Numbered from the stretch's first letter, positions 16,175 to 19,698 are shown. The stretch is DNA of 64,000 bases from Acidobacteriota bacterium (GCA_965205505.1 CBDBHB010000009.1:800001-864000); one strand, 5' to 3'. Program-made: numbers and translations. Notes: generated from the letters alone by a model not told the origin.

Positions 16175-17460
16175 GGTCTCTCCGTGAGCGCCTGGTAGGC
16201 GAGGATGCGGATCTCGGCGCGGAGCGGGTAACGATCCGATGGCGATATCTGGGTCAGCAGCAACCCGACGAGCTCCTCGGTTCGGTCTACCCAGAAATAG
16301 GTACTGCGAGCGCCGCCCCAGGAGAACGAGCCGGCGGAGCCCATCAACGACGATTGCGCTACGTCGGTGATCACCGCACCGGTGAGCCCGTACCCCACAC
16401 CGCGTGGGCTCGATTGCAGCGAGGTGGCCATCGCCGCCATCGGCTCCGGGCCGAGCGACGGGTCGAGGTGGTTCATCATCATCAGGTCGACGGTCTTGCG
16501 GCCGAGAATGCGCACTCCGTCGAGCTCGCCGCTGTTGGCGAGCATCTGAGCGAAACGAAGGTAGTCGGCAGCGGTCGACACCGAGCCACTGCCGCCGTAG
16601 GGCACGCGGTCCGGATCATGAATCCCCGGTCGGCTCGGCGCCCGCTCCATGCCGCGTTCCGGGGTAGCCCGGTAGCTGGCGGCCAGGCGGTCGGCGTTTT
16701 GCTCAGGAACATAGAAGGCGGTGTCGGTCATTCCGAGCGGTTCGAAGACGCGCTCGGCGAGGAACTCGTCGAATGGTTGTCCCGACAGCACCTCCACTAG
16801 CCGCCCGAGAACGTCCTGCGAGATGCTGTACACCCACTTGCTGCCGGGCTGGCGCGCCAGCGGTATCGACGCGACACGCTCGACGAAATTCGCCAGCGAC
16901 GGCGCCGCAAACAGCTGTGCCTCACTGTACAGCTCTCCGACCGGAGTCTCGTCACCGCCGTAGATCAGGCCCGAGGTGTGGGTCAGCAGATCCTTGACCG
17001 TCATTGTACGGGCCGGCTCGGTTTGCGGGTTTGCGGCGGTGCCGCCGATCCATACCTCGGTGTCGGCAAACTCCGGCAGGTACTGAGATACTGGATCGGT
17101 GAGCAGATAATGCCCCTCCTCGTAGAGGATCATCATCGCCACGCCGGTCATCGGCTTGGTCATCGACGCCATCCGAAAGATGGTGTCCTCGCGCAGCGCC
17201 TTGCCCTGCTCGACGTCCATCATGCCGACCTGGTCGAAGTGGACCAGTTTGCCGCGACGGGCGACGGCGGTGATCACTCCCGGCAGCGTGCCGGCGTCGA
17301 CGTAGCGCTGCATGGCCGGCCGGATGCGGGCCAGGCGCTCGCTCGACATACCCACCTCTTCGGGAGCGGCGCGCGGCAAGCCCTGCGCTGAAGCGGTGAG
17401 CGTTGCACCTGCCACCAATAGCGTCGTCGTTGTCGCGATGACGGAGATCTGTTTGTTCAT
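16171..17460 (-). CDS. Secreted serine hydrolase (beta-lactamase family)
   Basis: Start MNKQISV with RBS GAGGA; FRMASMTK, LLTHTSG, WVYS, WGG. Paralog of 9307-10581. Confidence 0.88.
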   Translation of the reverse strand: MNKQISVIATTTTLLVAGATLTASAQGLPRAAPEEVGMSSERLARIRPAMQRYVDAGTLPGVITAVARRGKLVHFDQVGMMDVEQGKALREDTIFRMASMTKPMTGVAMMILYEEGHYLLTDPVSQYLPEFADTEVWIGGTAANPQTEPARTMTVKDLLTHTSGLIYGGDETPVGELYSEAQLFAAPSLANFVERVASIPLARQPGSKWVYSISQDVLGRLVEVLSGQPFDEFLAERVFEPLGMTDTAFYVPEQNADRLAASYRATPERGMERAPSRPGIHDPDRVPYGGSGSVSTAADYLRFAQMLANSGELDGVRILGRKTVDLMMMNHLDPSLGPEPMAAMATSLQSSPRGVGYGLTGAVITDVAQSSLMGSAGSFSWGGARSTYFWVDRTEELVGLLLTQISPSDRYPLRAEIRILAYQALTERP

Positions 17461-17608
17461 CCGGTTCCTCCAGCAAACACGGCAGTCTAATCGCCGTGCA
17501 ATGCTGTCTAGATGAGATGAGAAGGCCAACCTCCTGAACGCAGTAGCCTGACGGCTCTGCAAACGTTTCTTCAAACGTAACGGGCTCGAAGCCCAAGGAG
17601 GTTGGCCG

Positions 17609-18654
17609 ATGACAAGTGTAACGATTGGACTGGACGTAAGCGACCGGTACAGCCGTATGTGCGTGCTCGACAGTAAGGGCAGGGTGATGGAGGAAGGGCG
17701 GGTGAGGACGAGCCCGGAGGGGCTGGCGAGGCGGTTCGGGTGCGAGGAGCCCGCTCGAGTAGTGCTGGAGGTTGGAACGCACTCGCCGTGGATGAGTGAG
17801 CAGTTGAAGCAACTGGGTCATGAGGTGCTGGTGGCTAACCCGAGGCGGCTGAAGCTGATCTATGGCGAGCACGACAAGACCGACCGGTTGGATGCCGAGC
17901 ACCTGGCACGAGTGGGCAGAATGGACCCAAAGCTGCTTAAGACGGTGCAGCATCGAGGCAGACAAGCGCGAGCGGATCTAGCCGTGATTCGGAGCCGAGA
18001 TGCTCTGGTAAAGAGCCCACGCAGTTGGTGAGCCATGTGCGTGGTGCGGTCAAGTCGGCCGGTTGTCGTATTCCCAGGTGCTCGACGCCGGCGTTCGCGC
18101 GCACCGCGCCAGAGCACATACCGGAGCGGCTCAAGGGAGCGCTCGAGCCGGTGCTTGAAACGATCGCCATGCTGACGGGCAACATCCAGCAATACGAGCG
18201 TCAGATCGCGCAGCTGTGCCAGGGGCGATACCCGGAGACACAGCAGCTCCAGCAAGTGGCCGGGGTCGGAGCTCTGACCGCACTGGCGTATGTGCTGACG
18301 CTTGAGGAGCCGGAACGGTTCAATACCTCCAGAGCCGTGGGCCCGTACCTGGGACTGAGACCGAAGAAACGGCAGTCGGGGGACAAGGACCCTGCGCTAC
18401 GAATAACCAAGGCGGGCGACAAAATGCTCCGACGCCTGTTGGTGGGCTCGGCGCATTACATCCTGGGCCCCTTCGGGCCCGATACTGAGCTCAGACGCTG
18501 GGGGCTCAAGCTGGCCGGACGCGGTGGTCCTCATGGCAACAAAAAGGCAGCAGTTGCTGTCGCCCGTAAGCTCGCCGTTGTGCTGCACCGACTGTGGCTG
18601 AGTGGAGACGAGTACGAACCGTTGCGCGCACCTGTAGAGGTTTCAGCAGCATGA
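17609..18654 (+). pseudogene. IS110 transposase/recombinase split by an apparent 1-bp deletion near 18017
   Basis: ORF1 has the RuvC-like DEDD residues (IGLDVS, VVLEVG, KTDRLDA). ORF2 has YLGLRPKKRQSG and AVARKLAV. AAG AGC C-C ACG CAG would read KSRTQ with one extra base. Confidence 0.88.
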
Positions 18655-18701
18655 ACTAACCCGCAACCAGGAGGTCGGTAGGGCGACGCGACCCAACGGT
18701 T

Positions 18702-18864
18702 ATCGATCTGACCGCCCGGTCCGGGCGACTGCGAAGGTCACTACGAGCTTCGAGCTCGGCAGCTAGATTGCAGCGCCTCGAATCGGGACGGACCCCAGAA
18801 TGCACCGGACGACCTGAATCCTCGTCCACCAGAGTGCGAATAGGAGCATGGCGTGCAGATCGAT
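18702..18864 (+). ncRNA. Candidate bridge/seek RNA in the IS 3' non-coding end
   Basis: Closing stem ATCGATCTG/CAGATCGAT; internal stem-loop-stem at 18724-18777 whose loop strands match the insertion site (see findings). Confidence 0.65.
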
Positions 18865-18897
18865 TCTTCGCTGGGCACCACATTGCCCTTGACCGAA

Positions 18898-19541
18898 CTA
18901 CGCCTTCTCATAGAAGTGGCCTCTGAGAAGTTCCATCGGGTCGCTGCGTAGGGCTCGCCAGGCGGGGACCGCACAGGCAAGAACCGCCATTCCGACCAGC
19001 ACCAGCAACGCCAACAGGTAGGTGAGCGCGTCGAGCGGACCGACGCCGAAGAGAGCGCCGCGCGCCAGATTCGACCCGAGCGTTGCAATCGAAATTCCGA
19101 CGATCAGGCCCAAGCCGAGTCGCTTCGCCCATGGCGACAGGGCACCGCGCAGCAGGTCGTGCCGACCCGCACCGAGTGCTCTGCGGATGCCGAACTCGCC
19201 CATCCTACGGCCCACCGAGATAGAGACCACGGCGTAGGTACCGACTGCCGCCAGCAGGTAGGCGACGACCGCGAAGGCGGTCATCAGCTGGGTGGCGAAA
19301 CGCGGCCGCGCGATTCGCAGATCGAGCATTCGCCGCATCGTACGGGAATCTACCGGCAAGCCAACGAAATGTCGCCGGATCTCGTCGCGTGCGCTGGCGA
19401 CATAGTCGATAGGCGAGCCACTGACTCGCAGGATAGTGCTGGTCCACGCGTTGGTTCCGTATCCCGCGCTGACGCCCTGCGCGGGTGTCGAAGTCGCCGA
19501 ACGCCGTGGCGTACATCCGTCAGCAAGGAGGCGAATCGCAT
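18898..19541 (-). pseudogene. ADOP/MacB-type ABC permease remnant with a large internal deletion
   Basis: N-terminus MRFASLLTDVRHGVRRLR in one frame; last FtsX domain (RRMGEFGIRRALGA...VPAWRALRSDPMELLR) in another; total only about 0.65 kb. Confidence 0.8.
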
Positions 19542-19698
19542 GGGCCTCGACCAAGGGTACAGTGGGACCGAGCTCCCGACCTCAATACGCCCGGGCGCAT
19601 CGCTTGAACTCTATAGCAGTGCTCGGCACCATAGCCCATCTGGGCACACGCCCCGCCCGTTGGTGGCGTGTCTTCCCGCCCCTGGTGAGGAGTTGATC

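Follow-up and report, generated by a model that had tools for sequence, protein, structure and literature searches.

An IS1111-type insertion sequence of an Acidobacteriota bacterium and the bridge RNA very probably encoded in its right end

The window, i.e., the whole stretch of 64,000 nucleotides of Acidobacteriota DNA analysed here, carries an insertion sequence between two genes of the minus strand, a beta-lactamase-fold gene and the 3' end of an FtsX-type permease gene. Judged from the sequence, 17512-18914 is an insertion sequence of the IS1111 type, and it has every feature that such elements show at that level (Table 1). The genome (5.98 Mb in 9 contigs) harbours 27 full-length copies with 98.4-100% identity, along with fragments. 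The copy in the window is 1403 bp long, whereas the intact copies have 1404 bp. The inverted repeats, ATGAGAAGGCC pairing with GGCCTTCTCAT, are subterminal and 11 nt in length, with the extensions ATGAG and AGA, which fits the 7-17 bp of the IS1111 group. The repeat ATGAG[A/G]AGGCC is also present in homologs of other genomes. All 27 full-length copies end with ...CATAGA/AG and 25 of them start with CTAG/ATGAG; a further copy of the AG core stands directly after the element body. As in the IS1111 group, the longer non-coding stretch is found 3' of the transposase gene (260 nt, 18655-18914, as against 97 nt on the 5' side, 17512-17608).

Table 1. Features of the element, the putative RNA and the flanking target, with positions counted from the first letter of the window
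Feature	Position	Strand	Details
Left flank CT and left copy of the AG core	17508..17511	+	Target half-site for the 3' strand of the target loop
IS1111-type insertion sequence, body	17512..18914	+	27 full-length copies; ends set by unoccupied sites
Left extension ATGAG; left subterminal inverted repeat ATGAGAAGGCC	17512..17516; 17517..17527	+	Inverted repeat of 18901-11
DEDD transposase gene, broken in the window copy	17609..18654	+	ORFs 17609-18031 and 18025-18654, in different frames
Putative long bridge/seekRNA, 163 nt	18702..18864	+	Closing stem 18702-10/18856-64 plus CGCC 18713-16/GGCG 18850-53
Putative target-binding stem-loop with junction helix	18719..18793	+	Junction helix 18719-22/18790-93; outer stem 18723-32/18770-78, A18728 bulged
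Target loop, 5' strand	18734..18743	+	AGGUCA 18735-40 pairs with top-strand TGGCCT, one G:U; CU 18741-42, core; A18743 next
Target loop, inner hairpin CGAGCU-UCG-AGCUCG	18744..18758	+	
Target loop, 3' strand	18759..18769	+	CU 18763-64, left-flank sense; AG 18765-66, core; AU 18767-68, handshake position
Putative donor-binding loop	18794..18848	+	5' strand CCCAGAA 18794-18800; 3' strand A-AUAGGAG-CA 18839-48
Donor-loop stem and hairpin		+	Stem UGCAC 18801-05/GUGCG 18834-38; hairpin 18807-27
TTGACC, outward-facing -35-like hexamer	18889..18894	+	
Right subterminal inverted repeat	18901..18911	+	CGCCTTCTCAT in the window copy; GGCCTTCTCAT in 24/27 copies
Right extension AGA; right copy of the AG core	18912..18914; 18915..18916	+	
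Right flank TGGCCT	18917..18922	+	Target half-site for the 5' strand of the target loop

The transposase gene of the window copy carries a frameshift, with one G missing after 18017; that G is present in 22 of the 27 copies. The intact form of the protein (P0001) has 348 amino acids, within the 330-350 of the IS1111 group, and scores 206.9 bits against the NCBIfam model NF033542, 'IS110 family RNA-guided transposase', for which the cut-off is 140. Pfam matches were found to DEDD_Tnp_IS110 (PF01548, 1.3e-15) and Transposase_20 (PF02371, 3.2e-17). The protein also reads GLRPKKRQSG, which corresponds to the GL-P----SG motif given for IS1111 transposases by Siddiquee et al. (PMC11187229). The catalytic residues D9, E54, D92, D95 and S257-G258 are invariant across 12 homologs (alignment A1). 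The relatives with solved structures are weak by sequence, namely ISCro4 (4.7e-9) and IS621 (4.5e-8), the similarity to the IS621 protein being limited to the C-terminal domain. An intact 348-aa gene is kept in 10 of the 27 full-length copies and is broken in 17. Five copies, including that of the window, are without one G after 18017, and a 4-bp deletion at 17874-77 is common to twelve; one copy has both defects. Each class of defect is spread over as many left flanks as it has copies, so that the 12 copies with the deletion stand at 12 different sites.

The target of the element is CT-AG-TGGCCT, in which AG is the shared core. CTAG precedes 25 of the 27 full-length copies, while on the right the junction reads AG-TGGCCT in 26 and TGACCT in one. 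Over all the right junctions in the genome, TGGCCT is found 30 times, TGACCT once and another sequence once. In most of the copies, the right flank runs into an abundant repeat, a 14-nt probe of which was found at 145 places. The repeat that hosts these copies forms a non-coding family, with a length of about 380-460 bp and CTAG at its boundaries. Its unoccupied places read CTA-GTGGCCTGTAACAG..., and the empty site can therefore be given as CT-AG-TGGCCT; more than 100 unoccupied CTAGTGGCCT sites are present in the genome. The orthologous locus was sought in genomes of the same genus, where a recognisable site is kept in G118 only. There it is unoccupied and reads GCTGTCTAG-TCGCCTCTGAG, with one base different from the TGGCCT of the window. 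The first-pass annotation, made from the window alone, had proposed the empty site GCTGTCT-AG-TGGCCT, with the AG core once in the target and twice after insertion. Both points are borne out by the junctions of the 27 copies, the unoccupied sites and the orthologous locus of G118.

The same annotation had placed a candidate guide RNA downstream of the transposase gene, and every coordinate and string that it quoted is present in the sequence. Its long-range stem (ATCGATCTG at 18702-10 with CAGATCGAT at 18856-64) and its internal-loop stem-loop, with the outer arms GGCGACTGC (18724-32) and GCAGCGCC (18770-77), were recovered in the minimum-free-energy fold of 18655-18912 (-99.3 kcal/mol, z = -2.40; 3 of 200 shuffles fold as well). 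The hairpin CGAGCT-TCG-AGCTCG lies where it had been drawn. For the internal loop, described as 9x9 (AGGTCACTA at 18735-43 and GCAGCTAGA at 18759-67), the strings were right, but the size is about 10 x 11 nt (18733/34-43 and 18759-69).

The fold is conserved in homologs. Six helices were counted in an alignment of 42 RNA sequences (A3), viz., the closing helix, the junction helix, two helices (outer and inner) in the target loop and two more (stem and hairpin) in the donor loop, with 33 pairs in all. Of the cells in A3, 85.4% are paired, a share that falls to 31-42% when the partners are slid by 1-3 columns. The covariation score of 0.285 compares with at most 0.083 in the slid controls, and none of 500 shuffles comes up to the observed values; the structure was drawn from these very sequences, which gives it an advantage over the slid controls. 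Both sides have changed in 21 of the 33 pairs, and compensatory changes are seen in all six helices. Helix 3, with 9 pairs, is paired in 97.9% of the cells and has 5 pairs changed on both sides; helix 2 is paired in 74.4%. The outermost stem is not column-aligned and was therefore tested by duplex energy. Over 44 elements, the cognate arms gave -19.6 kcal/mol and the non-cognate ones -13.9 kcal/mol, and none of 10000 permutations was as low. Similarly, the inner hairpin keeps its place in the homologs while its sequence and length vary, and it is stabler than its shuffles in 43 of 44 elements. In the donor loop, the hairpin is free to vary, and its changes compensate each other.

A covariance model built from A3 (R1) matches the window at 18711-18855 with 102.5 bits. 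It finds 31 RNA copies in the genome, one per element copy (27 full and 4 partial). When R1 was run on 16 loci without detected ends, the RNA was found in all 9 of the closer relatives and in 4 of the 7 distant ones, the distant loci with no RNA by this model being L056, L060 and L061. It gave no match in four plasmid-borne IS110-family loci (from E. coli, Klebsiella and Sphingomonas, including ISShdy1-like and IS5708-like ones). The transposase of the window is at most 36.7% identical to any plasmid-borne relative, and the non-coding regions of the four relatives tested go undetected by R1. The homology to proven seekRNAs thus rests on architecture and not on sequence. A scan of 17300-19100 with Rfam 15 gave no relevant family and only three sub-threshold, unrelated matches.

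Conserved U-G pairs occur within the helices, in 37 of the 42 sequences at one pair and in 13 at another, which fits an RNA of the + strand. These pairs also bear on an account at the level of DNA, in which the single-stranded DNA of the right end pairs with the target and no RNA takes part. In IS200/IS605 elements, it is indeed the single-stranded DNA of the element end that pairs with the target, and the complementarities described here exist in DNA just as well. However, the G-U pairs of the helices would be C-A mismatches on the other strand, and as G-T they would be weak in DNA; the pairing of guide with target also makes use of G:U. Further, the structure lies 50-210 nt from the end, in a transcribed-sense region downstream of the gene, and the protein is of the DEDD/RuvC type, from a family named RNA-guided, and not an HUH enzyme. 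We consider recognition by DNA alone to be highly improbable.

In the first loop of the putative RNA, the 5' strand AGGUCA-CU-A is the bottom strand of the right flank and core with one G:U, and the 3' strand CU-AG-AU matches the top strand of the left flank and core at 18763-66; the first-pass annotation had pointed out both of these matches. Each of the two strands is complementary to a different strand of the target, with their overlap falling on the core, as is the case for bridge RNAs and seekRNAs. The left guide is short and specifies only about 2 nt along with the core.

For the comparison of loops with targets, relatives of the transposase were collected. A search of 401 genomes of the phylum gave 34 positive ones at E <= 1e-30, with the own genome counted. 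The locus search with a single protein gave one locus, and an alignment-based scan of genome contigs gave 571 relatives, of which the best 80 were fetched. In all, 111 loci were examined; a recognisable pair of inverted repeats was present in 65, and the ends were not detected in 46. A common layout was observed in the 65 loci, flank-AG-ATGGG-[repeat]...[repeat]-(A/G)GA-AG-flank, with differing flanks. Ten of them were dropped (one belonging to an unpublished genome, two in which the loop anchors were missing, two whose flanks were too short, three with right ends lacking the following RGA and two with unequal left and right cores), so that 55 loci remained usable, and these carry 49 distinct loops. 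None of the claims made here depends on the unpublished genomes G152 and G024. Their kinship notwithstanding, the elements compared have highly diverse targets.

Across these 49 elements, both strands of the loop track the flanks of their own element, which is one of the checks that the first-pass annotation had named for its claim. The 6 nt of the 3' strand before the core agree with the cognate left flank at 4.10 of 6 positions on average and with non-cognate ones at 1.54. When 7 nt of the right flank, read on the bottom strand, are set against the 5' strand at the best of 8 offsets, the values are 6.08 and 3.52 of 7. In neither case was the observed match reached in 10000 permutations. The core read by the RNA equals the core of the DNA in 46 of the 49, including all three elements with the core AA. 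In these three (L045, L129 and L134), AA is present in the 3' strand, and UU in the 5' strand of L045 and L134; the change is carried in all three of the core-reading loop positions scored.

The genome itself also offers a view of site choice. CTAG followed by TGGCCT is unoccupied at 109 places and occupied at 30, whereas CTAG with TGTCCT is unoccupied at 87 and occupied at none. For TGGTCT after CTAG, the numbers are 12 and none, and for TGACCT, 2 and one; GA-AG-TGGCCT, with a different left half, is found 49 times and is never occupied. The occupancy of TGGCCT (30/139) differs from that of TGTCCT (0/87) with a Fisher value of 2e-7 and from that of GA-AG-TGGCCT (0/49) with 6e-5, values which, like those of the homolog comparison, are overstated because the sites of one repeat family and the related elements are not independent. 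The contrast for TGGTCT is not significant (0.13). The guide base U18738 can pair with G (as a wobble) or A but not with T, in agreement with this pattern. The occupancy shows that one G:U pair is tolerated and that a U-T mismatch is excluded.

These results bear on two other explanations. According to the first, the match between loop and insertion site in the window would be a chance occurrence in G+C-rich sequence. The left match does consist of only CU and the palindromic CTAG, and the z of the single-sequence fold (-2.4) is modest. Chance would, however, have had to produce in the homologs a match that the permutations failed to reach for either strand, along with sites whose occupancy follows the guide, and this we take to be extremely unlikely. 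According to the second, the 3' non-coding region has its structure for a different purpose, e.g., to control translation, to stabilise the mRNA or to bind the transposase as DNA, and the matches between loops and flanks are by-products of recombination. This explanation can draw on the putative status of the expression and protein binding of the RNA, and on the 5' strand of the donor loop, which covaries only partly. A by-product, on the other hand, would not keep both loop strands in register with the flanks in 49 elements with different targets, nor would it change the core at three loop positions in every core-AA element, nor predict which genomic sites are occupied. Moreover, relatives were experimentally shown to need the RNA (PMC11187229, PMC11208160). 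Another role for the region is, thus, very unlikely.

The evidence is best explained if the bridge RNA (long seekRNA) of the insertion sequence is encoded by 18702-18864, which we hold to be very probable. The reading as an RNA guide, already given in the first-pass annotation, is supported by the family features, the covariation of the target loop, the strand order and the donor guide. The donor guide belongs to the second loop, which shows complementarity to the ends of the element itself, though only partly so in its 5' strand. After a conserved AGUGCG, this loop reads N-AU(R)GA followed by the core. In all 46 of the unique elements, R is the same as the base with which the right extension begins (G in 32, A in 14), and the core agrees in 45 of the 46. 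In the window, AUAGGAG (18840-46) matches the right end and core, with one G where the end has A. Since R and the core track the right end in homologs, ATAGGAG is confirmed as the right-end guide.

The first-pass annotation had offered ATAGGAG as one of two weaker candidates for a donor guide; the other, CTCGTC (18821-26), was rejected because it is the 3' arm of the hairpin of the second loop (GGACGA 18807-12/TCGTCC 18822-27). In its place, CCCA (18794-97) of the 5' strand is the part that matches the left end, and this match is partial. The consensus of this strand, CCCA, matches ATGGG, the usual left extension, as read on the bottom strand. The strand follows the extension in some of the elements, with CCUUA accompanying ATAAGG and CUCA found in 4 of the 7 with ATGAG. 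The element in the window has CCCA where its left extension ATGAG predicts CUCA, a mismatch that is common to 2 of the 6 other ATGAG elements.

According to Hiraizumi et al. (PMC11208158), each loop of the IS621 RNA has two core-adjacent bases that, once the strands are exchanged, pair with the other DNA partner. Handshake-like positions were also observed here. In the target loop, the core is followed by AU in 40 of 46 elements, and the two bases at this place equal the left end of the donor in 39 of 46 and the right flank of the target in 1 of 46. In the donor loop, the two bases after the core equal the first two of the target right flank in 18 of 46; permutation gave a mean of 4.8 and in 10000 rounds never reached 18. 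Among the elements in which the first post-core base of the donor loop is other than C, 13 of 14 match the target right flank. The element in the window has CA (18847-48) at this position against TG in the flank, which is no match. The agreement of the target-loop AU with the donor left end, and of the post-core pair of the donor loop with the start of the target right flank, is the basis for reading the handshake as mirrored with respect to IS621. If so, the first strand exchange would take place on the strand opposite to that of IS621, relative to the transposase gene. A literature search gave no statement on handshake covariation in IS1111-type elements, a subject that the supplementary files of the papers may cover.

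A related question is that of the copies with a broken transposase gene. The target loop is invariant in all the 27 copies, despite the defects in 17 of them. As the own transposase gene of the window copy is broken and its RNA is identical to that of the others, this copy would act only with the transposase of the 10 intact copies. The joint reading, in which the IS1111 clade uses the handshake logic of IS621 in mirrored form and copies with a dead transposase and an intact RNA are mobilised in trans, is put forward tentatively, and we incline slightly towards doubting it.

As for expression, no sigma-70-like promoter site was found in the linear element, and a promoter of its own for the RNA was rejected on this ground. 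In 42 of 49 elements, the conserved sequence TTGAC stands at a distance of 22-23 nt from where the right inverted repeat ends; when joined to the circle junction, it gives TTGACA-17-GAAGAT or a similar arrangement. This outward TTGAC agrees with the junction promoter that was proposed for the IS1111 family (PMC11187229). Contigs from RNA libraries, obtained in two metatranscriptome runs of one study, cover 17692-18922 (X16) and 18200-18909 (X17); they span the transposase gene and the non-coding region contiguously, and being assembled contigs, for which DNA carry-over is possible, they cannot show transcription, strand or ends. The X16 and X17 contigs give no cover of the unique flanks of the window locus. 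A further run (X19) covers only 18422-18577. No joint of a circle or of an excised site is present among the RNA-run matches listed. We infer that the RNA is made and bound by the transposase.

On the bridge RNA reading, the RNA would be transcribed in the sense of the transposase gene, most likely together with it from a promoter that forms upon circularisation. Its closing stem would enclose two internal-loop stem-loops, of which loop 1 would read the insertion site and loop 2 the joined ends of the element itself. By analogy with IS621, transposase dimers on each of the loops may bring the circular donor and the target together, and the strands may then be exchanged at the shared AG/CT core. 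The element would thereby be inserted between CTAG and TGGCCT in one orientation.

The seekRNAs of four IS1111 members were shown experimentally by Siddiquee et al. in 2024 (PMC11187229), and Durrant et al. (PMC11208160) predicted that 93.0% of IS1111 elements have a bridge RNA in their right end. The RNA described here resembles those of ISEc11, ISPa11, ISKpn4 and ISPst6 (PMC11187229) in lying downstream of a DEDD transposase of about 340 aa, in its subterminal inverted repeats, in the expected junction promoter, and in a long form of about 150-170 nt that contains a shorter, target-reading stem-loop. Its two-loop layout also agrees with these reports, and its 163 nt fit within the published range for long seekRNAs of IS1111 members (148-172 nt; PMC13604230, Table 1). 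The order of the strands is likewise that of IS1111 seekRNAs, in which the part matching the top strand stands 5' of the one matching the bottom strand (PMC11187229); here, 18735-42 pairs with the top strand and 18763-66 with the bottom strand, and the homologs are the same in this respect. In contrast to ISEc11, ISPa11, ISKpn4 and ISPst6, the element in the window has its target, CT-AG-TGGCCT, at the end of a genomic repeat and is known from sequence alone.

With the bridge RNA of IS621 (Durrant et al. 2024, PMC11208160; Hiraizumi et al. 2024, PMC11208158), the putative RNA shares the presence of two internal loops, of which the one for the target precedes that for the donor. The guides of either loop differ in length, the 5' guide being the longer and the 3' guide the shorter, and they overlap at the core dinucleotide, which reads CU in the 5' guide; the core-adjacent positions match the other DNA partner, as in handshake guides, and the DEDD and serine catalytic residues are conserved. 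Whereas the RNA of IS621 is in the left end, the putative RNA follows the gene and is in the right end. Its 5' guides pair with the top strand (by the direction of the transposase), whereas those of IS621 pair with the bottom strand, and the inverted repeats are 11-16 nt in place of 2-3 nt.

The first description of the mechanism dates from 2024; the RNA is clearly a new instance of it and leaves the known mechanism unchanged. What the RNA adds is a well-documented case of natural RNA-guided site choice in a little-studied IS1111-type clade, found mostly in metagenome-assembled genomes from soil. The genome amounts to a natural experiment in specificity, in which the 31 RNA copies are accompanied by about 140 sites that match and about 90 that nearly do. 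R1, the 42-RNA alignment and the paired target and donor sequences can be reused for annotation and for the choice of compact orthologues for recombination assays. The within-genome specificity, the handshake-like covariation in the IS1111 clade and the spread of transposase-dead copies go slightly beyond routine annotation, and the published supplements of the cited papers may already contain the clade or an analysis of the handshake.

The preference for the terminus of another repeated sequence also has a parallel. IS4321 and IS5075 are said to be members of the IS1111 family that have the terminal repeats of Tn21-type transposons as their insertion sites. The element described here is like them in preferring the terminus of a repeated or mobile sequence, and it differs in that its host repeat is the non-coding, CTAG-bounded family described above. 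The copy in the window stands outside this repeat, on the stop codon of the permease gene, where 18917-22 overlaps the last codons of that minus-strand gene. The insertion alters the predicted end of the permease from ...LRGH to ...LRGHFYEKA.

A non-coding repeat that is abundant in the element's own genome, G000, has a length of ~380-460 bp and CTAG as its boundary; it starts with CTAGTGGCCTGTAACAGATGATCGTTGC and ends with ...CACGGCCTGCTAG. The first bases of this repeat are the preferred target of the insertion sequence, and the repeat forms the right flank of most of its copies in G000. A variant of the repeat starting with CTAGTGTCCT was found at 87 unoccupied sites and at no occupied one in the same genome. 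In the sequencing run X4, possibly a DNA run, the word depth was ~187 over the insertion sequence as against ~8 on the unique flanks of the window locus. The resulting ratio of ~23 agrees with the number of copies seen in the assembly.

Many of these copies are no longer able to encode an active transposase. Among the 27 copies of G000, a 4-bp deletion is common to 12, each with a different left flank, and a 1-bp deletion is shared by five, again with five different flanks; the RNA regions of these copies are intact. Transposase-dead copies have spread in G000. As the same deletions recur at different flanks alongside intact RNA regions, mobilisation in trans is suggested, or else gene conversion among the copies.

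In homologous elements, the core itself can be altered. Three of them (L045, L129 and L134) carry AA in place of AG, and the change is present in both DNA copies of the core as well as in the 3' strands of both RNA loops; the target loop's 5' strand, read for L045 and L134, shows it in both. Other elements are less regular. L086 has GG as its left core, GA as its right core and GG in its RNA, L107 has AG on the left against AC on the right, and in L137 no left end can be recognised; imperfect recombination or decay may have given rise to such forms. The right flank of L049 repeats ~30 nt of the element's own 3' non-coding region, thus suggesting a nested or tandem partial copy. This locus was left out of the counts because it lacks the loop anchors.

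A conserved, outward-facing -35-like TTGAC is present at the right end of the insertion sequence. Together with a -10-like GAAGAT, it would form a predicted promoter solely across the joined ends of a circular form; no promoter-like site was found when the linear insertion sequence was searched.

At the window locus, an FtsX-type permease gene has the insertion at its stop codon, by which the C-terminus of the predicted protein is changed from ...LRGH-stop to ...LRGHFYEKA-stop. The orthologous site in the same-genus genome G118 is unoccupied, and its guide-matched hexamer differs by one base.

Coordinates of the features described (window positions unless a locus or contig is named)
Feature	Position	Strand
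4-bp deletion	17874-77	
1-bp deletion	18017	
Predicted promoter across the joined ends	18889-18916 taken with 17512-17513	
FtsX-type permease gene	18898-19554	minus
Unoccupied site in G118	L143:1493-1512	
Example of CTAG-bounded repeat	G000:C8:1284671-1285130
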